Origin: an uncultured Methanoregulaceae archaeon
Lineage (GTDB): Archaea; Halobacteriota; Methanomicrobia; Methanomicrobiales; Methanospirillaceae
Assembly (NCBI GenBank): GCA_963737635.1
Contig: CAVTTL010000001.1
Location: 2,272,001-2,336,000, forward strand
Reading direction: 5' to 3'
Length of the DNA stretch: 64,000 nt
The notes beneath the pieces are model-generated. The model saw only the letters and a list, made by a program, of their open reading frames with translations. It ran no database searches and had not been told where the DNA came from. A program made the position numbers and the translations under genes. Below, piece after piece: positions 13,046 through 26,261 of this stretch. Each line of letters starts with the position of its first letter. The first letter of the stretch is position 1.

Positions 13046-15347
13046 ATGATCTCTATACTCTATGTCGATGATGAATCGAGCATGCTTGAAATTGGAAAAC
13101 TCTTCCTTGAACGGAACGGTCAGTTTTCTGTCGACATCATCACCTCTGCACCGGCGGCACTTGGCCTGCTTGCCGCAAAAAACTTCGATGCCATCGTCTC
13201 GGATTACCAGATGCCCGTAATGGACGGGATCGAATTCTTAAAAAAAGTCCGGGCTTCGGGAAAGACCATCCCCTTTATCCTTTTTACCGGGAAAGGACGG
13301 GAAGAGATCGTTATTCAGGCGCTCAATGAAGGCGCAGATTTCTACCTCCAGAAAGGTGGGGACCCTCTCTCTCAGTTTACTGAGCTCTGCATTCAAGCTC
13401 CGGCATGCCATCCAGAAACGATGGGCGGAAGATCGCCTCCAGGCCCAGGAAAAGCGTGAAGCAGAAATCATTAACTTCCTGCCCGATCCCACCTTTGCCA
13501 TTGACCGGACAGGAACGGTCATTGTGTGGAACCGGGCGATGGAGGAAATGACCGGGGTCAGGCCTTCAGAAATCCTTGGAAGAAATAACTATGAGCATGC
13601 TCTTGCGGTATACCACGAACGCCGCTCAATGCTCGCGGATCTCATCCTTACCCCGGATCCTCTCTTCGAGAAAGAGAGGTATATCTATACTCTCCGCGGC
13701 AGCAGGATGCTGACCGCTGAGACGGTTTTCCAGAATGCTGACGGGACAAATGTGCATCTCTGGGGTAAGGCCAGCCTTCTCCTTGGCGAGAAGGAAAACA
13801 TCGTAGGCGCGATAGAATCCATCCGCGACATTACCGATCAAAAAAAGGCGGAAAAGGAACTTCGTGCCGCGTACGAGCAGATTGCCGCAGCCGAGGAAGA
13901 ACTGCGCAGCCAGTACAATAAGCTTACCGAGGACGAGCAGATAATCCGGGAAAACGAGGAAAAATATCGCGAGCTCATCGAAAACGCCAACAGTATAATC
14001 CTCAAGTGGGATGAATCAGGGATAATTACTTTTGCAAATGAATTTGCCCGTGAATTCTTTGGCTTTTCCCACAAGGAAATCATCGGAAAACCGGTTATAG
14101 GTACTATCGTACCTGTCTCTGAATCAGGATCTGACAGAGATCTCCGTCAGATGATTGCTAATATTATCCGCCATCCTGAGGATTACATCGTTAATGAAAA
14201 TGAGAACATCACCCGGGATGGACGGCGTGTCTGGGTCCGGTGGCACAACAAACCCCTTTTTGATGAGAATGGAGCGTTTGCGGGTCTGTTAAGCATCGGT
14301 ACGGATATCACGGAGCATAAACGCATCGACGCTGCACTGAGAGAGAGCGAGGCGAAGTTCCGGGGCATATTTGCAGCTGTTTCAGATGGGCTTGCGTTGA
14401 TAGACCGGGAAGCCGGAACAATTATCGACTGTAATACCGCGGTACCGCTCATGTACGGCTATTCTAAGGATGAAATACTTGGCCTGCCCATGACCGCCCT
14501 TTCAGCCGAATCTGATGCAACACGTGCTGCGATAACAGAGGCGCAACCATATATACGGGACCGGTTTCACAAAAGAAAGGATGGTAGTGTCTTTCCGGTT
14601 GAGATTACCGTAAGTGTCACGTGCCTTCAGGCGCGCGAAGTGATAATCGCCGCTATCCGCGACGTTACCGAGTCCCGGAGGGCAGAAGAAGCGCTCCAAC
14701 AGGCAAACAGGAGTCTCGCTCTCCTTACCCATGTGACGAGGCATGACATCAACAACCAGCTTTTCGCGTTGAACGGTTTTCTTGGGTTACTTCACGAGAA
14801 GGTCAGGGATCCGGCACTTGAGGATTATTTCGCCTGGATCTCCCAGACAAATACCCGGATTTCTTCCATGATCCAGTTCGCTAGTGCGTATGAGACCGTG
14901 AGAAAAACGGATCCCGTATGGCAGGACATACGGATTCTCGCTGAAACTGCAACACACCAGATATCATTGGGGAATGTTATCGTGAAAAATGAGATCCCTG
15001 TCGGAGCGGAAGTTTTTGCCGATCCGCTGATAGTCAAGGTCTTCTATAATCTCATCGACAATTCGATCCGGTACGGAGGTAAGATTACCACGATCCGCTT
15101 CACTCTTATTGACCGGGAGGACAACGGGATTATCGTTTGTGAGGATGACGGTGCCGGTATCCCCAACGAGAATAAGGAGAAGATATTCGACCGCGGCTTT
15201 GGGAAGAATACCGGTCTTGGGCTCTTCCTCTCCCGCGAGATTCTCTCTCTCACCGGAATCACTATCCATGAAAAGGGAGAACCCGGGATGGGAGCACGGT
15301 TTGAGATTACCGTACCAACCGGAGCATACCGGTATACGGTAAAATAA
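13046..15347 (+). CDS. Hybrid receiver-3xPAS-histidine kinase; apparent frameshift near 13387
   Basis: ILYVDDE and DYQMP; HDINNQL H-box, NLIDNS, GLGLF. Confidence 0.87.
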
Positions 15348-16058: not shown

Positions 16059-16709
16059 TCACGGATTCTTCCGGACCAGACGTGCCCCGAGATCGTACGC
16101 CTTCTGGCAATCTTTCGGGAACTGCACCTCCCGGTGTTTCTTCTTCTCTTCCGGGTCAAAGAGCGTGGAGACATATTTCGAATAATCATCAAACTGGTAC
16201 GTGTCGGTGACAAACATCGACTCGCATGACCCGAAGATCCGTGCCATTGCCATTTCCGTCAGCTGCGCATTCCGGTCAAAGCCCATCTCCTTCACCATCT
16301 CCTCCTTTGCCCCGGCTGTGTAGATGAAACCGGTCCGGATCTTCCTTCCGAAGAGCGTGGACCTCGGGGGGTCATAGACTGAATACTGGTACATCAGCCG
16401 TTCGAGGAAGCACCGGGTCTCTCCGGTAGTGATCGAATAATATATCGGAGAGCCGATCAGGATCGCGTCGGCTGTCTCGACGTTTTTGAAGACTGGAGTG
16501 AGATCGTCTTTCTGGGCGCAGTGCCCGTAGCTCTTTCCTCCGATCCGTTTGCAGGAGAAGCAACTGATGCAACCTCTGTAGTCCAGATCGTACAGGTGGA
16601 TGAGTTCAGTCTCCGCCCCTTCCAACTCAGCGCCTTTACAGGCATGTTCGAGAAGCGTCGCAGTGTTCCACTTTTTCCGGGGGCTCCCGTTGAACGCGAG
16701 AAGTTTCAT
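16059..16709 (-). CDS. Iron-sulfur flavoprotein / flavodoxin family
   Basis: NGSPRKKWNT, CISCFSC...C, GSPIY. Confidence 0.88.
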   Translation of the reverse strand: MKLLAFNGSPRKKWNTATLLEHACKGAELEGAETELIHLYDLDYRGCISCFSCKRIGGKSYGHCAQKDDLTPVFKNVETADAILIGSPIYYSITTGETRCFLERLMYQYSVYDPPRSTLFGRKIRTGFIYTAGAKEEMVKEMGFDRNAQLTEMAMARIFGSCESMFVTDTYQFDDYSKYVSTLFDPEEKKKHREVQFPKDCQKAYDLGARLVRKNP

Positions 16710-16841
16710 AAGAATGTGTCGGAAGCTTAGGATAAAATGGTGAGGGACCTTTTTCCTGATGGTAGTGTGGGGGGGGCGAGAATTTGAAATTTTAATTAGA
16801 AAGAGGATTTAGATTCAAGGCGGAAAACTCCGACCCGCCCA

Positions 16842-16850
16842 TTTTATATA
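16842..16850 (+). promoter_or_regulatory. Probable TATA box of the aro operon
   Basis: TTTTATATA about 25-30 nt upstream of the ATG at 16874. Confidence 0.5.
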
Positions 16851-16873
16851 CCCCGACCATGATACATGTTATC

Positions 16874-16936
16874 ATGCAGGAAGAGTGCGCCAGCGCCCGT
16901 GAGGGTTTTTTCCCTCGGGAATGTCTTTATCCGTAA
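16874..16936 (+). CDS. Candidate leader peptide [20 protein letters not shown]
   Basis: 20-codon uORF at the predicted TSS; Phe-Phe codons lie in the loop of a GAGGG/CCCTC hairpin. Confidence 0.35.
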
Positions 16937-17114
16937 AAGCGCAGCACCCGTCCTTCGCATCAGTAATGCCATTTCTGAAAATGTAAACGCAGGCAGCATC
17001 GGCTATCGCGTTTTTGGCTTTTTTCAGCCTTTTCGGCTTCAGGTATTATCCCTGATACCGGTAATTTCCTTCATATCTGATCTGTTGTTCAGGGCTGAAG
17101 GGGGAGTTGTTGTT

Positions 17115-17906
17115 ATGAGAGGTAAAGAAATTCGTCTGGAACGTATCATGAACCGAAATACGAAAAAAACTGTCATCGTACCGATGGATCACGGTGTCAC
17201 CAACGGCCCGATCCAAGGCCTTATCGACATGGGCCAGACCGTGAACCTTATCGCTGACGGCGGGGCAAACGCGGTTGTCGGCCACGTAGGCCTCGCCCTT
17301 TATGGCCACCGGCAGGGAGGGCGCGACATCGGGCTCATCCTGCACTTGTCGGCCTCTACCTCGCTCGGCCCGGACCCGAACGAGAAGGTGTTGGTGAACT
17401 CGGTGACCAATGCTCTTAAGATGGGCGCCGATGCAGTCTCGATGCACGTCAATATCGGGGCCGAATCTGAGGCCCGGATGCTCCAGGACCTTGGGAATGT
17501 CGCCATCGAGTGCATGGAGTGGGGCATGCCGCTACTTGCGATGATGTATCCGAGAGGAAAAGACATCAAGAAAGAGAACGATGTCGATCAGGTGAAGCTT
17601 GCCGCCCGGGTGGCAGCCGAGCTTGGGGCAGATATCGTAAAGACCGTGTACACCGGCGACCCGGAGTCCTTCCGTGAAGTGACCCGGGGTTGCCCGGTGC
17701 CGCTCGTGGTCGCCGGAGGTTCAAAGACGGATGACCGCACAACACTTGAATTGATCGAAGGCGCAATGGCGGGAGGAGCAGCAGGGATCTCGATCGGCCG
17801 GAACGCCTTCCAGCACCGGACACCGGACAAGTTTGTCCGGGCGGCGGCATGCATCGTGCACCAGAACAAAAGCGCCGAGGAAGCGCTGAAAATCCTCAAC
17901 GGGTAA
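17115..17906 (+). CDS. aroA': DhnA-family aldolase, 2-amino-3,7-dideoxy-D-threo-hept-6-ulosonate synthase (paralog 1)
   Basis: [19 protein letters not shown] Schiff-base Lys, GRNAFQ; first gene of the aro operon. Confidence 0.85.
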
Positions 17907-17916
17907 AGTGGAAATC

Positions 17917-18698
17917 ATGATAGGAAAGGAGATCAGGATCGAACGGATCATGGACAGGAACACGGGACGTGCGGTGATCATCCCGATGGACCATGGCTTT
18001 TCCATGGGACAGATTGACGGCCTGCTGGACATGACTAAGGTCATTACCGATGTGAGTGAGGGAGGGGCAAATGCGATTGTCCTTCATAAGGGCATGGTAA
18101 AAAGAGGACACCGGCGGCACGGCCGGGACATCGGGCTCATCGTGCATCTGTCGGGCAGTACGTCGCTCAACCCGGACCCGAATGACAAGGTGCTTGTCTG
18201 CACGGTGGAAGAGGCAATTGCGCTCGGAGCCGATGCGGTCTCCATCCACATCAACCTCGGCGCCCCAAACGAATCCAAGATGCTTGAGTCCGGGGCGAAG
18301 ATCGCCCGGGACTGCAACCGCTGGGGCATGCCGCTCCTTGTCATGATCTACCCCCGGGGTAAGGGTATCGACCCCAGCTCACCGCAGACCATCGGGCAGT
18401 GCGTGCGGGTAGCTGAAGAGCTGGCGCCGACCTGATCAAAACCAGTTATCCGGGCAGTCCCGAGGCATTTTCCCGGATCACCAAAGCCTGTTCGGTGCCG
18501 GTCTTTGTCGCTGGTGGCGAAAAGATCAGCGACCTTGAATCCCTCGAGATGATTAAGGATTCGGTAGCGGCGGGAGGGGCAGGTGTCTGCATGGGAAGGA
18601 ACGCGTTCCAGCGTGACAACACCCGGGCGTTTGTCCATTCCATCTGCCGCGTCGTACATCATAACGTCGACCCGAAAAAAGCATTGGAGCAGCCGTAA
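17917..18698 (+). CDS. DhnA-family aldolase paralog 2; apparent frameshift near 18424
   Basis: PMDHG, YPRG, EL(G)ADLIKT after restoring one G, GRNAFQ. Confidence 0.82.
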
Positions 18699-19688
18699 AT
18701 GAAGCAGTTCTGGGTGGATGCCCGCCCGTGGAACAAGGAGATCGTAACAACCGCAATTGAGAGCGGGACGGATGCAGTCGTGGCCGACCGGGCCGAAGAA
18801 GTAAAGAGGCTTGGGAGAATCACGACCGTGGCACCGGACGGCGATCTCGTTCCCGGGAAAGACGTGATCGAGTGCACGATCACCGACAAGGCGAGCGAGA
18901 ACGAGGCAGCCGCGAAAGGAAAGAACAAGATCGTTATCGTTACCACGAGTGACTGGACGGTTATCCCGCTCGAAAACCTTGTCGCCCAGTCCGACCGGAT
19001 CATCGCAGCCGTAAAAGACGTCCACGAGGCGGAACTCGCCCTGCACGTCCTTGAAAAAGGAGTGTACGGCATCCTCCTGAAAAACACCGACCCGGCAGTG
19101 GTAAAAGCGGTCGCTTCGCTCATCAAAAGAGAGTCAGGCAGCGTCCGGCTCGTCCCCTTTACCGTGATGAAGATCCAGCCGGTGGGCATGGGTGACCGGG
19201 TCTGCGTGGACACTTGTTCAATGCTTTCTGACGGCGACGGTATGCTGATGGGGAACACTTCATCTGCCATGCTCCTCGTTCATGCCGAGACCCTCGAAAA
19301 CCCATACGTTGCGCCACGCCCGTTCCGGGTGAATGCCGGCGCAGTGCACGCGTACATCCTGCTCCCGGACGGGAAGACGGCGTACCTTTCCGATCTTTCC
19401 ATCGGGGGACAGGTACTCGTTTCTGACAAACGCGGCACCGCCCGATCCGCAATCGTGGGGCGCACCAAAATTGAGCGTCGGCCGCTGCTTCTCGTAGAGG
19501 CAAAGGCAGAAGGTGGGGCAAAAGCGAGCCTGATCCTCCAGAACGCTGAGACCATCCGGCTTGTGACCCCTGAGGGGAATGCCATTTCTGTCGTGAACCT
19601 TGCTGCCGGGAATACGATCCTCGGCTGTGAACTTGAAGGCGGCAGGCACTTTGGCATGCCGGTCAAAGAGACGATCCGCGAGAAGTGA
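18699..19688 (+). CDS. aroB': 3-dehydroquinate synthase II
   Basis: DWTVIPLEN, GDRVCVDTC, RPFRVNAGAVHAY, LQNAET, GRHFG. Confidence 0.93.
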   Translation: MKQFWVDARPWNKEIVTTAIESGTDAVVADRAEEVKRLGRITTVAPDGDLVPGKDVIECTITDKASENEAAAKGKNKIVIVTTSDWTVIPLENLVAQSDRIIAAVKDVHEAELALHVLEKGVYGILLKNTDPAVVKAVASLIKRESGSVRLVPFTVMKIQPVGMGDRVCVDTCSMLSDGDGMLMGNTSSAMLLVHAETLENPYVAPRPFRVNAGAVHAYILLPDGKTAYLSDLSIGGQVLVSDKRGTARSAIVGRTKIERRPLLLVEAKAEGGAKASLILQNAETIRLVTPEGNAISVVNLAAGNTILGCELEGGRHFGMPVKETIREK

Positions 19689-19690
19689 GC

Positions 19691-20515
19691 ATGAAGGCAG
19701 GCATCATTGGCGGCACCGGGAAGATGGGCAGGCTCTTTGTCCCGGTCTTTGAGCGGGCGGGATACGACGTTGTGGTCTCAGGGCGCTCGACAACCATTAC
19801 GAATACTGACATTGCACAGACCTGTGATCTGGTGATCGTCTCAGTTCCCATCCGGGATACCGTGCGGATCATCGGTGAGATCGCACCATTGTTACGGGAG
19901 GATCAGCTTCTCTGCGACTTCACCTCGCTTAAAGCCGGGCCGGTTTCCGCTATGCTCGGATCAAAGGCAGAAGTGATCGGGCTCCACCCGATGTTCGGGC
20001 CGACAGTATCGTCCATCAGAGGCCAGACCATCGTTGTGTGCCCTGTGCGGACGACTGATGTAACACTCAACAATCTCAAAGGCATCTTCCTGCGTGAGGG
20101 TGCGGTATGTACGATCACGGCACCAGAGGAACACGACCGGATGATGGCCATTGTGCAGGGGCTCACCCACTTTGTCACGATCTGCATGGCTGATTCCATT
20201 CGCAGGCTTGGCGTTGATATTCATGAGACCGAGAAGTTCATGAGCCCGGTCTACCAGATCGAACTCTCCCTTGTGGGAAGACTGCTCTCCCAAGATCCGG
20301 CGCTCTATGCCGATATTCTCGAACAGAACCCGTTTGTCCCTGAAGTACTTGCAGCGTGCCGGTCTGCAGCTGCAGAACTTTCAGCGATCGTGAACAGCGG
20401 CGATCCTGAGGCCTTTGCAGAATTCTTTTCCCGCGATACCCGGCATCTCGGTACCTACTGTGAGCGCGGCCAGGTGCTTACTGATGCCCTCATCGATTGT
20501 ATGGTGAAAAAATGA
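19691..20515 (+). CDS. tyrA: Prephenate/arogenate dehydrogenase
   Basis: GIIGGTGKMG, DFTSLK, HPMFGP, EEHDRMMA. Confidence 0.92.
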   Translation: MKAGIIGGTGKMGRLFVPVFERAGYDVVVSGRSTTITNTDIAQTCDLVIVSVPIRDTVRIIGEIAPLLREDQLLCDFTSLKAGPVSAMLGSKAEVIGLHPMFGPTVSSIRGQTIVVCPVRTTDVTLNNLKGIFLREGAVCTITAPEEHDRMMAIVQGLTHFVTICMADSIRRLGVDIHETEKFMSPVYQIELSLVGRLLSQDPALYADILEQNPFVPEVLAACRSAAAELSAIVNSGDPEAFAEFFSRDTRHLGTYCERGQVLTDALIDCMVKK

Positions 20516-21303
20516 GCGTCATCACCCTCGGCCCCGAAGGAACATTCTCCCACGAGCTTGCGCTCAGGCTGAAAAGTGACACGATCGTTCTTGAACCAAC
20601 TATTGCCCGCATCTTTGCCAGCGTGGCAGCAAGTAAAGGAGATGGCATTGTCCCGATTGAGAATTCCGAAGCCGGCGGGGTCGGTGAGACCCTTGATGGC
20701 CTGACGAAGTACCCCCTTTCGATCACTGCCGAGATGTACATGCCGATCCGCCACCATTTTGCTTCCCTTGTGCCGCTTGATAAAATCCGGGTGATCTATG
20801 CCCACCCCCAGACCCACGAGCAGTGCAGCACATGGCTTGAGCAGTGGCAGGTGCCGGTGATCCATACGAGCAGCAACGCATCCAGCGCAATCGAGGCCAA
20901 AAAGACCCCGAACGCCGGGGCGATTATATCAGTCTCGGCGGCAGAGATCTATAAATTGCCCATCATCGCAGAACACATCGAGAACAATCCAGAGAATACA
21001 ACCCGGTTTGTTCGAATTGCAAGAACTCCCGGTCCTGACCACCGGCCCGGTAAGTGCAGCCTCCTCATCGACCCGGATACTGACCGGGCCGGGTTGCTCT
21101 ATGATCTCCTTGGTGTCTTTGCAAAGAGGAAGATCAACCTCACCCGGATCGAATCGCGGCCTTCAAAAAGGGGCATAGGAAAATATGTCTTTTTCCTCGA
21201 CTATGCTACAAATGGGTGCACGGACGAGGCACTCCAGGAACTCGGGGAGATTACCACCATCCGTAAACTGGGGTGTTATCCCAGGATCAAGGTTCCCTTA
21301 TGA
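20512..21303 (+). CDS. pheA: Prephenate dehydratase with ACT domain
   Basis: LGPEGTFSHE, PIENS, NTTRF, INLTRIESRP. Confidence 0.93.
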   Translation: MSVITLGPEGTFSHELALRLKSDTIVLEPTIARIFASVAASKGDGIVPIENSEAGGVGETLDGLTKYPLSITAEMYMPIRHHFASLVPLDKIRVIYAHPQTHEQCSTWLEQWQVPVIHTSSNASSAIEAKKTPNAGAIISVSAAEIYKLPIIAEHIENNPENTTRFVRIARTPGPDHRPGKCSLLIDPDTDRAGLLYDLLGVFAKRKINLTRIESRPSKRGIGKYVFFLDYATNGCTDEALQELGEITTIRKLGCYPRIKVPL

Positions 21304-22566
21304 TCGTAACCCTCCTCGAGCGGCGCGGTATCGATCTTTCCGTCGCTGCCCCCCCATCAAAAAGTTACACGCACCGTGCCCTCATCGCGGCAGCCCTCGC
21401 CCAAGGCACGAGCACGATCGTCCACCCACTCATGGCCGACGATACGAAACTGACCATTGCCGCCCTTGCGCGGCTCGGTATCGCGATCGGTACCGGTGAC
21501 CGTACCGTAACCATCGAAGGGTGTGATGGTGCATTCTCCTGCCCCCCGGGCACAGTGCTCGATCTTGACAATTCCGGCACCTCCCTGCGCCTGCTCGCCT
21601 CATCAGTCACTCCTCGCCGATCACCCGGTCACCCTGACCGGGAGTGCCCGGATGCAGGAACGGCCGGTCGGGCCGCTTACCGATACCCTGTCCCTTCTCG
21701 GGGGAAAGATCACTTTCGCGAAAAAAACAGGTTTTCCCCCGGTAACGATTGGCGGCAGGCTGGATGGCGGGACGGCCACCATCGACGGATCGGTAAGCAG
21801 CCAGTTCGCCTCCTCAATCCTGATGGCAGCCCCCTATGCGCGGAATCCGGTCAGGCTCGCAATCACCGGAACTCCCGCATCGCAATCCTATCTCGACATC
21901 ACGGCCAGCGTCATGGTTGATTTTGGCGCTGTGGTTCAACGCAAAGGATACCGGTACTTTGAAATCAGCAACCAGAACCATTATTCCGGCCATACCTACG
22001 TCATCGAAGGGGACTATTCATCTGCTTCGTATTTCTTTGCGCTCGCGGCGATCTGCGGCGGGAAGGTAACGGTAGCCGGCCTCAACCCGGATTCTGTACA
22101 GGGAGACCGGCTCTTCCTTACTGCGCTCTCGAAAATGGGCTGTCAGGTGACCTTTGCTCATGATGGCGTTATGGTAGAACACGAGGGCCCCCTGTTCGGG
22201 ATAACCATTGATATGTCCTCGGCTCCTGATGCCGTCCAGACGCTCTGTATGGTTGCGGCAGTCGCAAAGACACCCACCGTAATTACCGGTATCGGCCACC
22301 TGAAATACAAGGAGAGCGATCGCATTGCCGTTACCGCGGAACGCTTGAAGCATCTCGGTGCCAACGTGAACACCGATGACGACCGGATCATCATCCTGCC
22401 TGCTTCTCTCCACGGCGGCACGATAGACCCGGTAAACGACCACCGTACAGCGATGAGCTTTGCTGTCCTGGGCCTTGGGATCGGCGGCGTCTCGATCACC
22501 GGTGCGGAATGCGTCAACAAGTCCTATCCCGGTTTCTGGGACGCACTTTCCGGGGTGATGGAATGA
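21300..22566 (+). CDS. aroA: EPSP synthase; apparent frameshift near 21600
   Basis: PSKSYTHRA, NSGTSLR, SSQF, KESDRI, DHR, NKSYP. Confidence 0.92.
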
Positions 22567-23952
22567 GGCGGATTGTGCTGTTTGGCTACCGGGGGACCGG
22601 CAAGACGGCAATCGGGACGGTTCTTGCCCGCCGGCTGGGCGTGCCGTTTCTCGATACCGATTCCCTTGTCGAAATGAAATGTGGCCAAACGATCCCTGAG
22701 ATCTTCCGCGAGAAGAGTGAGGATCGGTTCCGGGAGTTGGAACGGGAGGTAATTGCCGGGCTTCCCGCAGACAACGTTATCATCAGCACCGGAGGGGGCG
22801 TGGTGATGGATCCGGTAAACATGGAGCGGCTCCGGGCAGGAAGCGCGTGCATACTTCTGACAGCAGATCTTGCGATTATCGGGCACCGGCTTGCCCACGC
22901 CCCCCGCCCGCCGCTCACCTCACTCCCTCCCGATAAGGAGATTGCGGAGGTTATCGCCCGCCGGCGATATAATTACGCTGCGGCGGCGGATTTCTGTTTA
23001 GATACCAGCCGGACTTCGGTTGAAAACGCTGCCGGACAGATCCTCTCGCTTCTTGAAAAAGGTACTATCCCTGCCCCGGTCCGGGAGGAGGCCTTCCGGT
23101 GGTTTGTAAAGAGCCCCCTTCCCGAACCAGAATGCGACCAGCTGCGGTTCCTCCTCACCGGTCCTGATCGTGACCCACAGACCCGGTTCCTCGGTGTCGC
23201 CGGCTGGCCGTGCAGCCACAGCAAGAGCCCTCTACTCTTCAACCGGCTCTTCGAAAAATACCAGCTTAATTATCATTACACCCGGTTCGAAGATCCTTCG
23301 ATCCGGGACATTATGCAGATCGCACGTGATATGGATGCAAAAGGGCTTTCGGTGACTATTCCTTTTAAACAGGTCGTGATAGCCTGTATCGATGAAATCG
23401 ATGACGCCGCGCGACAGATCGGTGCGGTAAACACCGTCGTCTTTGCCTGCGGATCTGCGTACGGCTGCAATACGGACTGGCTCGGCATACGAAAACCTCT
23501 TGCCAGCTATGCAGGTTCGCATGCAGTACTGCTCGGTGCCGGAGGGGTTGCCGCGGCTGCAGCATATGCGCTTCTGGATCTCGGTATGGAGGTTACGATC
23601 CTGAACCGGACACCGGAGAAAGCACGGGCACTTGCGGAACGATTTGGCTGCCAGTGGGGCGCATGGGAGGATTTTGACGGGAAAAACCCGGATCTAGTCG
23701 TAAATGCAACGCCGCTTGGCATGCAGCCGAACACGAAGAGCCCCCTCCGGGACGATCAGCTCAAGAAGGAGATGACCATATTTGATCTTGTGTATACACC
23801 TCCGGTCACTCCGCTTATTGCAGCCGCACGAAAGGCCGGGCTGCACAACCATCACGGGCACCGAGGTCTTTATTTATCAGGCACGGGAGCAGTTCCGGCT
23901 CTTCTTCGGGATTGACGTTCCAGACACGGCTATACGGGAGATATTGGCATGA
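22563..23952 (+). CDS. aroE: Shikimate kinase (P-loop type)-shikimate dehydrogenase fusion; apparent frameshift near 23840
   Basis: GYRGTGKT...DTD...STGGG...RP kinase; HSKSP, SVTIPFK, GAVNT, NTD, GAGG, NRT, DLVY; the tail FIYQAREQF is in the shifted frame. Confidence 0.88.
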
Positions 23953-24935
23953 ACACCTTTGGCAGGAATTTTGCGGTCACAACGTTTGGGGAAAGCCACG
24001 GCCCGGCTGTGGGAGCAGTTATCGACGGATGTCCCACCCGGCTCGCATTATCGGCTGCCGATATCCAGCCATTGCTTGACCGGCGCCGGCCGGGCATGTC
24101 TCCTCTCGTGTCAGCAAGAAACGAACCTGATACGGTCGAGATCCTCTCGGGTATTTTTGAAGGGATGACCACCGGCGCTCCCGTCGCCCTCCTGATCAGG
24201 AACCGGGACATGTACCCGGGGGATTACGAGACGATCAAAGACCAGTTCCGGCCCGGCCACGCGGATTTCACGTACCAGGCAAAATACGGTATCAGGGATT
24301 ACCGGGGTGGCGGCCGGAGCTCGGGCAGGGAGACCGTCGGCCGGGTGGCGGCTGGTGCTGTCGCGTTGAAGTACCTCTCCGGTCTGGGCATTGCAGTCAC
24401 CGGCCGGATTGTTTCCGTGCATGGCAAAGCTGGTCAGCAGGAGATTGAGAAGGAGATCCTTGCAGCCAAAACAGCCGGAGATTCGGTGGGTGGGATCGCT
24501 GAGATCGTGGCAACTGGCTGCCCGGCGGGACTGGGAGACCCGGTATCCGGGAAACTTGACGCGGCGATTGCCGGCGCCATGATGGGAATTGGCGCAGTCA
24601 AGGGAGTCGAGATCGGCGAAGGGTTCGCGGTTGCCGGGCGGTTCGGGAGCGAAAACAACGACCCGATGACCGCAACGGGTTTTGTATCAAACAACGCTGG
24701 TGGTATCCTTGGCGGAATTTCATCGGGGCAGGATATTGTCGTGCGTATTGCTGTTAAACCGACGCCCTCAATTGCAAAAGTACAACAGACCCGGGATGTC
24801 CACGGAAATGTTGTGGAGATCAGGGTAGGCGGCCGGCATGATCCCTGCATTGTGCCGAGGATCCTCCCGGCGGCAGAGGCGATGCTTGCGCTCGTACTCA
24901 TCGACGCCGCGCTGGAGCAGGAGAAATACCGGTAA
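23949..24935 (+). CDS. aroC: Chorismate synthase
   Basis: GESHG, RPGHAD, GRSSGRET, KPTPSI, GRHDPCI. Confidence 0.95.
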   Translation: MNTFGRNFAVTTFGESHGPAVGAVIDGCPTRLALSAADIQPLLDRRRPGMSPLVSARNEPDTVEILSGIFEGMTTGAPVALLIRNRDMYPGDYETIKDQFRPGHADFTYQAKYGIRDYRGGGRSSGRETVGRVAAGAVALKYLSGLGIAVTGRIVSVHGKAGQQEIEKEILAAKTAGDSVGGIAEIVATGCPAGLGDPVSGKLDAAIAGAMMGIGAVKGVEIGEGFAVAGRFGSENNDPMTATGFVSNNAGGILGGISSGQDIVVRIAVKPTPSIAKVQQTRDVHGNVVEIRVGGRHDPCIVPRILPAAEAMLALVLIDAALEQEKYR

Positions 24936-24975
24936 ATATTTTTTGCCCCGTGTCACCTGATGCATGATACCCTAT

Positions 24976-25614
24976 TCAGGCGGAGAGCAGTTTTGCCAAG
25001 GTGACAAATTCCTCAACAGAGTACTGCCCCTCAGCAGTTGGCACTCCGGTATGGCAGTACACCAGCTCCGAACCAAAGAGCGGGAGAACTGCCCGGGCGT
25101 ACCGGAACGATGCACCCATTACGCCGGTGCAGATGGGTTTTTTTGCCGCATAGGTAAAGGCAATAAGGTTAATAAGATCGTCCTCGTTTCTGGGGGTGAC
25201 GATGATCTTTGGGATATCACCGTAAGACCTGAGCTCCTGTTCGAGGACAAAGAGGACATGGAGCGGCAGCATCTGGGAGCTATGGTAGGAAGCGATGATC
25301 TTTTTTCCTGCTGCTTTTACCTGTCCGGCCCCGCAGGAAAACTGCTGCTCGACATCGACAAACTCCACAAGAGGGATGATCGGTGCGATCTTTTGTTCCC
25401 ATTCATCCGGGCTCCCGAAGTACCGGCCCCCTTCCCGGGCGGAGCGGAACGTTGCGATAACCGGGAGCGGGGAGGTCGTTTTGCATTGCCGCACCAGTTC
25501 AACCGGATTTCCCTCCATCAAGTCAAAACGGAGCTCGATGACGTGTGCACCCTGCGCCTGTGCAGCGGCAGCCTGTCCGGGATCCGTCAGGGAGGCAACG
25601 ATCTGCATGTACAT
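24976..25614 (-). CDS. aroD: Type I 3-dehydroquinate dehydratase
   Basis: IELRFD, TFRSAREGG, IASYH, DIPKI, MG, GQ motifs. Confidence 0.85.
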   Translation of the reverse strand: MYMQIVASLTDPGQAAAAQAQGAHVIELRFDLMEGNPVELVRQCKTTSPLPVIATFRSAREGGRYFGSPDEWEQKIAPIIPLVEFVDVEQQFSCGAGQVKAAGKKIIASYHSSQMLPLHVLFVLEQELRSYGDIPKIIVTPRNEDDLINLIAFTYAAKKPICTGVMGASFRYARAVLPLFGSELVYCHTGVPTAEGQYSVEEFVTLAKLLSA

Positions 25615-25724
25615 GACGGTTGGCCGGCAGCGCACAAAAAGATACGCCCCGCCGGGAACATCCCTCAAAGGATCTTTGCAGGATACCGGTTTATCCCCTT
25701 CCGGGTCGAAACCTTCCGCTGGAT

Positions 25725-26261
25725 ATGGAACGTACGGCAGTCATGGCAACGATTCGATCCGCATGCGGCGCGCTCGGGTGGTGCGTCCTCCTTTCGATCG
25801 TCCTGCCTCTCGGCAGTGCATATATGCTTGGACTGTCTCTTGCCGCAGCCTGTGCCCAAGTGGGAAGTGCCTTTTTTATCGAGTACGGTTCGATACCGAT
25901 CGGAATAGGTCTTGGTCTGCCTCCGCTCTACGTTCTGCCGGTAGCAACTAGTATCGAGGCCGGGATCTTCCTCGGGATCTATGGCATTCTTGACACCATC
26001 GGGTCGGCATCCGGATACGTTGCCCACTTCCTTGAGTGGACAAGAAAGATCGCTGCACGCTCAAAAATGTTTGACCGGTACGGCATCTACGGCCTGTTTC
26101 CCTGTGAGATCCTGATCGGCGTATACCTGTGCGCCCCGATCTCGTGGTTTCTCGGGTGGCAGAAAGGGCGATCATTTGCGATCACTATGGCCGGGTACTC
26201 CGTCGCTGCAGTGGCAACGACCCTTGCTACCCTCGGCCTACTACGCTATTTCTTTTCCTGA
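25725..26261 (+). CDS. Multi-TM membrane protein (small multi-drug export-like)
   Basis: Hydrophobic; IEYGSIPIGIGLGL and RYGIYGLF patterns. Confidence 0.6.
   Translation: MERTAVMATIRSACGALGWCVLLSIVLPLGSAYMLGLSLAAACAQVGSAFFIEYGSIPIGIGLGLPPLYVLPVATSIEAGIFLGIYGILDTIGSASGYVAHFLEWTRKIAARSKMFDRYGIYGLFPCEILIGVYLCAPISWFLGWQKGRSFAITMAGYSVAAVATTLATLGLLRYFFS

Follow-up and report, generated by a model that had tools for sequence, protein, structure and literature searches.

A candidate ribosome-read leader for aromatic amino acids upstream of the aro operon in Methanomicrobiales

Amino acid sensing by ribosomes that translate a leader peptide is a textbook mechanism in bacteria, and a ribosome-read sensor of this kind is hardly documented in archaea. 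The stretch of 64,000 nucleotides analysed here (hereafter the window), from an uncultured Methanoregulaceae archaeon, carries an aro operon for which the original prediction had proposed a leaderless, ribosome-sensed Phe/Tyr switch. The locus raises the question whether the leader of the operon is read by ribosomes and, if so, how the reading is passed on to the genes. A full-text literature search found no report of ribosome-mediated leader-peptide sensing for archaeal aromatic amino acid genes, and in PMC2965389 the word 'archaea' appears in the reference list only. Comparison of the leader across the order Methanomicrobiales led us to favour, with a probability of about 0.6, a ribosome-read leader that acts across the order as the sensor of aromatic amino acids of the aro operon. 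In a broader wording, as a ribosome-mediated cis-regulator of some kind that works through leader ORFs, the claim is highly probable on the same comparative grounds. The leader-peptide attenuator idea of the original prediction was supported by these comparisons, but the hairpin within its uORF did not hold up as the switch.

The aro operon, its promoter region and a conserved 34-nt block

The first gene of the operon (17115..17906, + strand) encodes ADH synthase (2-amino-3,7-dideoxy-D-threo-hept-6-ulosonate synthase), as identified by Pfam DeoC (1e-64) and NCBIfam TIGR01949 (350.2 bits against a cut-off of 299.45). It starts at the ATG at 17115 with an N-terminus that is retained among relatives, the start codon being ATG in 124/127, GTG in 2/127 and TTG in 1/127 loci. 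Pfam and NCBIfam profile matches in the remaining operon (17908..24935, + strand) identified a second ADH-synthase paralogue, 3-dehydroquinate synthase II, prephenate dehydrogenase, prephenate dehydratase-ACT, EPSP synthase, a shikimate kinase-shikimate dehydrogenase fusion and chorismate synthase. The whole shikimate-prephenate operon that had been predicted downstream of the leader was thus recovered, as an ADH-synthase/DHQS-II type of shikimate pathway with prephenate dehydrogenase and prephenate dehydratase, which covers the common aromatic pathway together with the Phe and Tyr branch enzymes. Three apparent breaks (17025, 18421 and 21608) are assembly errors and do not signify pseudogenes; metagenome contigs identified those at 18421 and 21608 as assembly indels, and the one at 17025 is discussed with the long leader ORF. 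A tRNA scan of the whole 64,000-nt window returned zero tRNAs.

A TATA-like box of the leader promoter, TTTTATATA, was read directly at 16842..16850 on the + strand, where the original prediction had placed it. Its spacing to the downstream ATG at 16874 is conserved, as the most AT-rich octamer was centred 26-31 nt before the ATG in 98/107 loci that bear the block described below (mode 28), a range that is partly made by the method, which chooses the octamer inside a -45..-12 search window. The TATA-to-ATG spacing fits a leaderless start at 16874 and agrees with the earlier proposal that this ATG sits at the expected transcription start site. Between the TATA box and the ATG lies the palindrome CATGATA-N5-TATCATG (16858..16876, read directly), a candidate operator for a DNA-binding regulator, and the genomes of other members of the genus have a similar palindrome, GTGCTA-N5-TAGCAC, ahead of the TATA box. 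A bacterial-type promoter scan, whose consensus is not archaeal, gave nothing relevant on the + strand, and Rfam cmscan of 16500-17400 at E up to 10 returned two chance-level matches (14.9 and 13.6 bits vs gathering scores of 80 and 52).

Starting from the ATG at 16874, the short ORF uORF1 (16874..16936, + strand, read directly and conserved) has the 20 codons claimed for it followed by TAA at 16934-16936, with Phe-Phe codons at 16907-16912 that form a six-T run and with Tyr (16928-16930) as the penultimate codon. When the leader was aligned across relatives, as the original prediction had suggested, the uORF and its Phe-Phe and Tyr codons were found to be kept order-wide. An ATG-opened short ORF of 14-26 codons was present in 107/107 block-bearing loci, and an extra 18-nt unit found in the genus leaves the uORF1 frame intact. 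The synonymous changes TGT/TGC, TTC/TTT and TAT/TAC, along with GAN for Glu or Asp, agree with this frame.

In its first version, the proposal took this 20-codon uORF alone as the sensor and a GAGGG/CCCTC hairpin around the Phe-Phe codons as the switch. The uORF with its Phe-Phe and Tyr codons is indeed conserved, and the hairpin is present in the window (16901-16905/16912-16916) and in its nearest relatives. However, all five pairs are complete in 6/64 distinct blocks and 2 or 3 pairs only are left in 55/64; the uORF ends ~180 nt before the gene, with no conserved structure connecting it to the ribosome-binding site; and both the long ORF and the anti-Shine-Dalgarno hairpin presented in the following sections are left unaccounted for. 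We regard the uORF and its hairpin as an extremely unlikely explanation of the leader.

Cross-locus comparison delineated a conserved 34-nt block (16898..16931, + strand) made up of an 18-nt unit and a 16-nt second copy, which lies in two reading frames. Usable loci (n=126), i.e. those with at least 200 nt of upstream sequence, came from all six families of the order; the block was found with up to 10 mismatches in 107/126 of them, as 64 distinct sequences, and has one copy in its own genome. GTGA occupies block columns 1-4 and 19-22, and the G-U-G-A in each unit is complementary to the 16S rRNA 3' end, which in the same genome is GGATCACCTCCT. Columns 9-14 read [T/C]TT TT[C/T] and columns 27-32 read [T/C]TT TA[T/C], with T at columns 11-13 and 29-30 in 64/64 distinct blocks and at columns 10 and 28 in 63/64. 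The mean entropy of the block per codon phase was 0.59 / 0.20 / 0.56, and its variants preserve Glu/Asp, Cys, Phe and Tyr when read in one frame, with Ser, Pro and Val preserved when they are read in the other. This three-base periodicity speaks for a translated sequence and not for a motif that acts solely as DNA or RNA, and so do the synonymous-type changes seen in either frame.

The overlapping long leader ORF and its aromatic tail

Overlooked in the original prediction, a long leader ORF overlaps uORF1 in the +1 frame and runs from GTG at 16899 to TGA at 17053-17055 (16899..17055, + strand), with 51 codons once a surplus base at 17025 is discounted. In the assembly its frame continues into the aro gene. 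Metagenome contigs from runs X1, X2 and X6, which belong to three studies, have one letter fewer at 17025 and T at 17029 in place of C (17025..17029); of these, X1 is possibly the source sample, the contig of a further run, X5, stops short of 17025-17029, and all contigs represent DNA. The long ORF looks interrupted in the window because of this assembly error, and removal of the surplus base according to the contig reading restores the 51 codons. Among the 107 block-bearing loci the +1 frame is open for 39-84 codons, with 25 distinct lengths, in 106, and the sole exception is the window as assembled. The median open lengths of the three frames after the conserved [A/G]TG were 13, 51 and 0 codons. 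This start codon is GTG in 52/64 and ATG in 12/64 distinct blocks, so the ORF is mostly GTG-started; only 7 or 25 nt separate its start from the presumed 5' end, and no Shine-Dalgarno site is evident for it. Conservation is poor in the middle of the ORF, where the length also varies.

The aromatic tail of the long ORF (17004..17052, + strand) has Phe or Tyr in 7/12 and 9/17 of its last codons in the contig reading. Across 106 loci, the last 12 codons consist of 28% Phe, 26% Tyr and 5.5% Trp, compared with 5.6%, 1.9% and 0.8% midway along the ORF, the aromatic share being 59.7% vs 8.3%. In frame, the 36 nt of the tail encode 7.16 aromatic residues, and the two alternative frames give 1.35 and 2.27. 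No more than one codon follows the final aromatic codon in 100/106 loci, and motifs of the Y-R-[FY]-[FY] type recur in the tail across families. In the species of the window a TGA terminates the ORF at a position that is TGG in its closest relatives, which places the last aromatic codon farther from the core of the downstream 5' arm. Taken on its own the tail of the window is not distinctive, since its own genome has 94 open frames with at least six aromatic residues among the last 12 codons; the support comes from the cross-locus comparison, because the features of the window alone are not beyond chance. With its tail rich in Phe, Tyr and Trp codons, the long ORF appears to be a better sensor candidate than the short uORF.

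A leader ORF with an aromatic-rich end was present in 126/126 usable loci. The two-ORF form of the window accounts for 107/126, and the other 19/126 lack the block and have a single ATG-opened ORF of 36-73 codons with an aromatic end; in seven genera without the block, the N-termini MCGEC.., MCDGC.. and MQGS.. are fused in frame to the aromatic tail. A candidate system that combines the promoter spacing, two ORFs, the codon cluster and a Shine-Dalgarno hairpin is found in every sampled family of the order. Outside the order, the 34-nt block was found in 0/40 loci, which represent 15 further families of the phylum, and no aromatic-ended ORF near the gene exceeded the reverse-strand control, the nearest case being L145 with 5/12 at -46 and a reverse-strand value also of 5.

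These comparisons bear on the view that the block and the palindrome are protein-binding sites, as a DNA operator or an RNA-binding site for a regulator, either repressor or activator, that responds to aromatic amino acids, and that the open frames are by-products. In favour of this view, the nucleotides of the block, with 0-4 mismatches per 34 nt between families, are more conserved than the neighbouring enzyme (70-82% protein identity), the block is a direct repeat with an 18-nt period and the palindrome is located at the promoter. This view is at odds with the three-base periodic variation that keeps residues in two frames, with a +1 frame that stays open through its poorly conserved middle at 25 lengths, with a tail that is aromatic in the +1 frame only, and with the 19 block-less loci that still have an ATG-opened, aromatic-ended ORF. 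As a full account of the leader it is very unlikely, and a protein site at the promoter could coexist with the leader.

The leader ORFs might also encode trans-acting small proteins, for example a hydrophobic, aromatic-rich micro-protein, in place of sensors. That both ORFs are conserved and open, and that Y-R-[FY]-[FY]-like tail motifs recur across families, would suit such peptides, but the middle of the long ORF varies in length and is poorly conserved, and Pfam and NCBIfam searches with 14 leader peptides (13 long ones and the short one of the window) gave none above the cut-offs, with best E-values of 0.04 and 0.088. The element is moreover single per genome and always stands before the aro operon, and its conserved stop-to-hairpin position would be needless for a protein acting in trans. 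A trans-acting role is hardly credible on this evidence.

A hairpin over the Shine-Dalgarno site and the proposed mechanism

Between the leader stop codon and the first gene, the minimum free energy (MFE) structure of the stop-to-start stretch and the fold of the whole leader both contain a hairpin. Its 5' arm, the anti-Shine-Dalgarno strand (17055..17073, + strand), has the core CCTTCA at 17068-17073 and begins in the window 2 nt past the first base of the leader stop codon. The 3' arm in the MFE structure (17096..17116, + strand) includes GGGGGAG (17100-17106), which resembles a Shine-Dalgarno site, and extends to the ATG of the first gene. The stop-to-start stretch of the window has an MFE of -16.4 kcal/mol with z -1.4. 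Among 107 compact loci, at least 4 nt of the region -18..-4 are paired with an upstream partner in 82 of the MFE structures, and the Shine-Dalgarno region is unpaired in the other 25; in 75/82 loci, the distance between the first base of the stop codon and the start of the pairing partner is 0-8 nt, with a median of 4. The mean z of the hairpin is -1.82, with z below -2 in only 47/107 loci. In 24 genus representatives cognate arms pair with -16.45 vs -12.14 kcal/mol for swapped arms, and 0/10000 permutations reach the cognate mean, a comparison that is biased toward cognate pairs by the overlap of its two windows in the shortest spacers. Compensatory pair changes in the hairpin were observed within the genus.

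The whole leader (16870-17120) folds with z -0.86, and 38/200 shuffles are equally stable, which indicates that there is no large structured RNA. In the RNAalifold consensus of 26 genus sequences, the Shine-Dalgarno hairpin is accompanied only by a 3-pair hairpin and by 5' pairings that are invariant; the consensus has no covarying alternative pairing, and no mutually exclusive antiterminator pairing that overlaps the regulatory codons. The 3-pair hairpin (16995..17004, + strand; consensus columns 125-134) consists of AGC, a tetraloop and GCT just before the aromatic tail, and two of its three pairs are changed on both sides, from CG to GC, in 4 and 5 sequences. A pairing between the region of the long-ORF start codon and that of the Tyr codon (columns 26-32 with 51-57) was rejected, its pairs being invariant or GU/AU and its one candidate covariation being inconsistent across lineages as judged by eye.

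The proposed mechanism takes its ORFs, their frames and codon content, the hairpin and their conservation directly from the comparisons above. Transcription would start at or next to the ATG at 16874, as suggested by the TATA spacing, and both overlapping leader ORFs would be translated, the second one starting at the [A/G]TG within the first, in the +1 frame, and ending in Phe, Tyr and Trp codons. With charged tRNA-Phe, -Tyr or -Trp scarce, the ribosome is predicted to dwell on the last codons of the long ORF and to cover the 5' arm, which would leave the Shine-Dalgarno site free and allow the ADH synthase gene to be translated. With the amino acids plentiful, the ribosome would depart fast, the hairpin would re-form and translation would be low. 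The stall site seems to be placed so that a ribosome on the tail would cover the 5' arm, the archaeal reach being assumed from bacterial and eukaryotic ribosome footprints. Stalling on the short ORF would leave the 5' end obstructed by a ribosome, a point that the simple model does not account for. As the specific mechanism, unmasking of the Shine-Dalgarno site has odds that are somewhat better than even.

The anatomy of the leader points to translation control and not to classical terminator/antiterminator attenuation. In transcription-level attenuation the same leader ORFs would sense aromatic tRNA charging, with premature transcription termination as the output, either at the post-stop hairpin, at oligo-T tracts or via a factor acting on ribosome-free RNA. 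Such an output could use the runs of 5-7 T in which the leader is rich, as archaeal RNA polymerase uses T runs of this kind as termination signals, and the small covarying hairpin before the tail could serve as a pause site. It would also suit loci with long spacers: five block-bearing loci have a stop-to-start distance of 108-130 nt, and in several single-ORF lineages the stop lies 125-233 nt upstream of the aro start, with the stop-adjacent hairpin retained in both groups at a distance from which Shine-Dalgarno masking is impossible (as in L029, z -5.6, and L108, z -4.5), so unmasking is not the whole story there. In the compact majority, however, the 3' arm is the Shine-Dalgarno region, followed by GTTGTTGTT or the start codon, with no T run, and the + strand of 16400-17400 was free of terminator-like sites in a scan with a bacterial, non-archaeal consensus. 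A stall that occurs a long way behind the polymerase is moreover expected to favour termination, which is the wrong sign for a biosynthetic operon unless further structure intervenes, and none was found in the leader. We consider attenuation of transcription quite unlikely.

Relation to known leaders and a possible frameshift

Bacterial attenuators such as pheA, pheST, trp and his gauge tRNA charging by a leader peptide rich in codons for the end product, and act by a choice between antiterminator and terminator hairpins that exclude each other, the terminator having a U tract. The present leader resembles them in a leader peptide rich in codons for the end products of the pathway, and is unlike them in that the scan and the consensus described above gave no terminator or alternative pairing and that its hairpin contains the ribosome-binding site. 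At ermC and cat, the ribosome is arrested by an antibiotic together with the nascent peptide, whereas here the cause of arrest is likely to be a shortage of charged tRNA at clustered codons. In excerpts from bioRxiv 10.1101/834739 (Canestrari et al.), the ribosome arrested in the leader ORF of ermC/cat remodels a hairpin that masks the downstream Shine-Dalgarno site, which is the kind of remodelling proposed for the aro leader.

The mycobacterial polycysteine leaderless short ORFs, for which the same excerpts describe an experimental demonstration of the same logic, resemble the aro leader as proposed here in having a short ORF at the extreme 5' end of a leaderless transcript, a codon cluster for the amino acid made by the downstream genes and a ribosome that, when stalled in the cluster, is proposed to block a duplex, with control exerted on translation. 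Unlike the mycobacterial Cys leaders as described there, the aro leader belongs to an archaeon, concerns three aromatic amino acids instead of cysteine and is put forward from sequence; it has two overlapping ORFs in different frames, and its regulatory codons lie at the extreme end of an ORF of 39-84 codons. If the proposed reading is true, archaea control a central biosynthetic operon by translational attenuation, ribosome initiation of the methanogen type has a working control point in Shine-Dalgarno masking, and unannotated overlapping short ORFs bear regulatory information. The element is defined, mutable and ~240 nt long.

The two overlapping leader ORFs raise the further question of a programmed frameshift driven by amino acid hunger, a reading that we hold to be doubtful. 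Ribosomes would initiate at the leaderless AUG of the short ORF and, with Phe- or Tyr-tRNA scarce, would pause at UUC or UAU while tRNA-Phe occupies a UUU codon in the P site; with the upstream G-U-G-A paired to the 16S 3' end, the tRNA would slip +1 along the U run and the ribosome would enter the long ORF. Only starved ribosomes would then reach the aromatic tail, stall again and open the Shine-Dalgarno hairpin, and well-fed ribosomes would finish at the short-ORF stop, far from the hairpin. Such a switch would explain the strict conservation of the short ORF, its AUG and the T runs, a long ORF that has no ribosome-binding site of its own, and the fusion of the AUG in frame to the aromatic tail in the seven genera that lost the block.

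The features of a prfB-like cassette are present, namely a slippery P-site codon, a slow A-site codon, an upstream Shine-Dalgarno-like stimulator and an open +1 frame. An excerpt from PMC2377451 names three features that favour +1 frameshifting at prfB (release factor 2), and all three occur in each block unit, including re-pairing on UUU in the U run and a Shine-Dalgarno-like sequence a few bases upstream, here G-U-G-A. The slow codon of prfB in that account is a stop, whereas here it is a sense codon whose speed would depend on supply, frameshifting being only predicted for the aro leader; and, unlike in prfB as described there, the conserved [A/G]TG is an ordinary start option for the +1 ORF.

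The favoured reading, that of a ribosome-read leader, concerns the aro operon, and the leaders of trpE were also inspected. In the genome of the window, trpE is preceded by only a 30-codon ORF ending in Cys-Trp and has no Trp-rich leader. In relatives, a different mini-ORF, which is conserved, stands before trpE.

Aro operon and leader region of the window

The first gene of the aro operon encodes 2-amino-3,7-dideoxy-D-threo-hept-6-ulosonate (ADH) synthase and starts with ATG at 17115 (17115-17906; Pfam DeoC 1e-64; NCBIfam TIGR01949 at 350.2 bits, cut-off 299.45). Among the loci collected from relatives the start codon was ATG in 124, GTG in 2 and TTG in 1, and as the N-terminus is conserved as well, 17115 is taken as the true start. 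The gene is followed by a second paralogue, 3-dehydroquinate synthase II, prephenate dehydrogenase, prephenate dehydratase-ACT, EPSP synthase, a shikimate kinase-shikimate dehydrogenase fusion and chorismate synthase. The upstream neighbour (16059-16709, FMN-reductase fold) lies on the opposite strand, so the 405-nt gap is a divergent intergenic region.

Reading of the sequence bore out the leader features described in the original prediction, namely a TATA-like box TTTTATATA at 16842-16850, a short ORF of 20 codons from ATG 16874 to the stop at 16934-16936 with Tyr as penultimate codon, and GAGGG (16901-16905) and CCCTC (16912-16916) around a six-T run with the Phe-Phe codons. By itself the leader is unremarkable: it has neither an Rfam match nor a tRNA, its fold was not better than that of shuffles (z -0.86), and the same genome holds 94 open frames with at least six aromatic residues among their last 12 codons.

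Conserved short ORF and overlapping ORF with an aromatic tail

ADH synthase turned up in 36 of 41 relatives searched; a class-level draw of 121 genomes, all from the six families of the order Methanomicrobiales, had it in 120. Of the 127 loci collected one was too short, leaving 126 with at least 200 nt upstream. Allowing up to 10 mismatches, a 34-nt block made of two units (16898-16931 in the window) was recovered from 107 of these, in 64 distinct sequences. Each of the 107 has an in-frame ATG before the block, 6 nt upstream in 68 loci and 24 nt in 39. This ATG opens a short ORF 14-26 codons long (M-x-G-E-C-F-F-A-G-E-C-F-Y type); the extra 18 nt in the genus of the window are a whole number of its codons. 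The proposed uORF and its Phe/Tyr codons are conserved across the order. The most AT-rich octamer, sought only within -45 to -12 of this ATG, was centred 26-31 nt before it in 98 of the 107 loci (mode 28). The usual centre of archaeal TATA boxes is near -26/-27, so the spacing seen here suggests that transcription starts at or next to the ATG and that the short ORF is leaderless.

Inside the short ORF, block columns 1-3 hold a second potential start, [A/G]TG (of the 64 distinct blocks, 52 have GTG and 12 have ATG), from which the +1 frame is open for 39-84 codons, with 25 distinct lengths, in 106 of the 107 loci; the three frames from the block have median open lengths of 13, 51 and 0 codons. 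The middle of this long ORF is little conserved and variable in length, the frame nevertheless being kept. Phe makes up 28.3%, Tyr 25.9% and Trp 5.5% of its last 12 codons, compared with 5.6%, 1.9% and 0.8% of the middle; these last codons include Phe in all 106 loci, Tyr in 105 and Trp in 67, and in 100 loci an aromatic codon stands last or second to last. The 36-nt tail carries 7.16 aromatic residues in frame versus 1.35 and 2.27 in the other two frames, while an independent scan of all 126 loci counted 0-5 on the reverse strand and a mean of 1.4 to 3.8 per locus (mostly 2-3) in shuffles.

The sole exception among the 107 loci was the window as assembled, where the long frame continues into the enzyme gene. 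When contigs of four metagenome runs were compared with 16700-22700, the three runs covering 17025 (X1, X2 and X6, from three studies, X1 possibly being the source sample) had one letter fewer at 17025 and T at 17029. With these readings the long ORF extends from GTG 16899 to TGA 17053-17055 (51 codons), and 7 of its last 12 and 9 of its last 17 codons are aromatic. Further single-base errors of the assembly show in an extra T that the contigs carry behind 18421 (X1, X2) and in a base that they drop at 21608 (X1, X5, X6); as both positions coincide with apparent breaks, in the second ADH-synthase paralogue (17908-18435) and in EPSP synthase (21273-21920 / 21523-22566), these genes are probably intact and not pseudogenes.

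Variability along the block follows a three-base period, with mean entropies of 0.59, 0.20 and 0.56 at positions 1, 2 and 3 of the short frame. Synonymous changes occur in the short frame (TGT/TGC, TTC/TTT, TAT/TAC, and GAN with all four bases, giving only Glu or Asp) and in the long frame (TCG/TCA/TCC, CCN with all four bases, GTT/GTC). This pattern fits dual coding and speaks against a purely DNA or RNA motif. Pfam and NCBIfam searches with 13 long peptides and the short peptide of the window returned no family above the cut-offs.

The block could also lead ribosomes into the long ORF by +1 frameshifting, as a slip there would enter that frame directly. PMC2377451 names three features favouring such an event, a hungry A-site codon, a re-pairable P site and an upstream Shine-Dalgarno-like sequence, and each block unit shows all three. 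The potentially hungry codon is UUC in unit 1 and UAU in unit 2; the P-site UUU can re-pair one base on within the U run (T in 64 of 64 distinct blocks at columns 11-13 and 29-30, and in 63 at columns 10 and 28); and G-U-G-A upstream of each slip site is complementary to the 16S rRNA 3' end (GGATCACCTCCT in this genome). In addition, the 19 block-less loci (seven genera, four families) each have only one ORF, opened by ATG and 36-73 codons long, downstream of a TATA-like element, aromatic-rich towards its end and with an N-terminus recalling the short ORF, such that the same ATG is fused in frame to the aromatic tail. We nevertheless consider a frameshift site unlikely, because the conserved [A/G]TG offers an ordinary start.

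Hairpin over the Shine-Dalgarno region and the proposed mode of action

The segment between the leader stop and the start of the enzyme gene was folded in 107 compact loci, defined by a tail with at least five aromatic residues and a stop 30-90 nt before the gene. The mean z was -1.82, with values below -2 in 47 loci and below -1 in 86. In 82 loci the -18 to -4 window had 4 nt or more paired with an upstream partner, and in 75 of them this partner started 0-8 nt away from the leader stop, counted from its first base (median 4); the ribosome-binding site was unpaired in 25. The hairpin arms vary between genera yet remain complementary: in 24 genus representatives, cognate post-stop and pre-start segments gave -16.45 kcal/mol versus -12.14 when swapped, and 0 of 10000 permutations reached the cognate mean, the two segments overlapping in the shortest spacers. 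RNAalifold on 26 genus sequences recovered the Shine-Dalgarno helix with four pairs changed on both sides, as well as a small three-pair hairpin directly before the tail with CG-to-GC exchanges. The helix in the window (17055-17073 / 17096-17116; predicted fold -16.4 kcal/mol, z -1.4) covers GGGGGAG (17100-17106) and extends to the start codon. These structure statistics are moderate. The GAGGG/CCCTC hairpin, originally proposed as the switch, is not conserved, all five pairs being kept in only 6 of the 64 distinct blocks.

The leader most likely works by stalled-ribosome unmasking of the Shine-Dalgarno site, where a ribosome paused over the final codons of the long ORF or at its stop would cover the strand pairing with that region. 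A short supply of charged tRNA-Phe, -Tyr or -Trp would prolong the dwell and be expected to increase translation of the first aro gene, while with ample charged aromatic tRNA the hairpin would re-form. A bioRxiv paper (10.1101/834739) reports experimental demonstration of this mechanism for mycobacterial polycysteine leaderless short ORFs and compares it to ermC and cat. Two defining features of a classical trp-type attenuator are missing, as a terminator scan with a bacterial consensus and fold inspection found no terminator with a U run in the leader region and the RNAalifold consensus of the 26 genus sequences had no covarying alternative pairing. The hairpin after the stop persists in 5 block-bearing loci and several single-ORF lineages at a distance of 108-233 nt from the gene, so another output, e.g. 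termination or RNA stability, may exist there. Also counting against the reading, the long ORF of the window's species ends with TGA where its closest relatives carry TGG. We rate the region as a putative translational leader-ORF attenuator, new for its occurrence in archaea, its aromatic amino acids and its two overlapping frames. A full-text literature search, with most subscription journals outside its reach, found no archaeal amino-acid leader peptide.

Distribution and other observations

The block occurs once in the genome of the window; the 40 loci compared from outside the order, which represent 15 other families of the phylum, have neither the block nor an aromatic-ended ORF beside the enzyme gene.

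Most genomes of the genus carry the palindrome GTGCTA-N5-TAGCAC just before the TATA box (L002 and L005-L016, some 30-50 nt ahead of the leader ATG). The window has instead a related CATGATA-N5-TATCATG at 16858-16876, between TATA box and ATG with their spacing kept, and GCTA..TAGC palindromes occupy that interval in two other families. The palindrome is a candidate site for a DNA-binding regulator working beside the leader.

In 12 of 30 loci of relatives (L171, L174-L176, L179, L180, L192, L194-L198) the region before the anthranilate synthase (trpE-like) gene had an exact match to a degenerate 20-nt motif, which was present in 0 of the other 169 loci compared. It includes GGTGAT and an ATG opening a mini-ORF of 8-10 codons (M-P-V-[D/E]-W...), whose single Trp codon overlaps an [A/C]TG at the trpE start position, and which may be a Trp-sensing mini-uORF. 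The genome of the window lacks this motif and has instead a 30-codon ORF ending Cys-Trp-stop 27 nt before trpE (contig G000:C1, about 1090779-1090900, minus strand).

The tandem ADH-synthase-type aldolase genes (17115-17906 and 17908-18690) share about 50-57% identity and are adjacent in nearly all relatives searched; the second may be a genuine ADH synthase or, alternatively, a class I fructose-bisphosphate aldolase. No recognisable 3-dehydroquinate dehydratase or chorismate mutase was seen in the aro operon as read, and a 314-codon ORF at its end (24964-25908) has no Pfam or NCBIfam match. Upstream of the leader region lies a PAS-domain histidine kinase (13326-15347) with three PAS stretches and HATPase_c. 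Many archaea use a GHMP-type shikimate kinase, and the single ORF at 22509-23915 may therefore merit attention, as it fuses a SKI/AroK-type shikimate kinase to shikimate dehydrogenase (Pfam SKI residues 28-182, Shikimate_dh_N 230-310).
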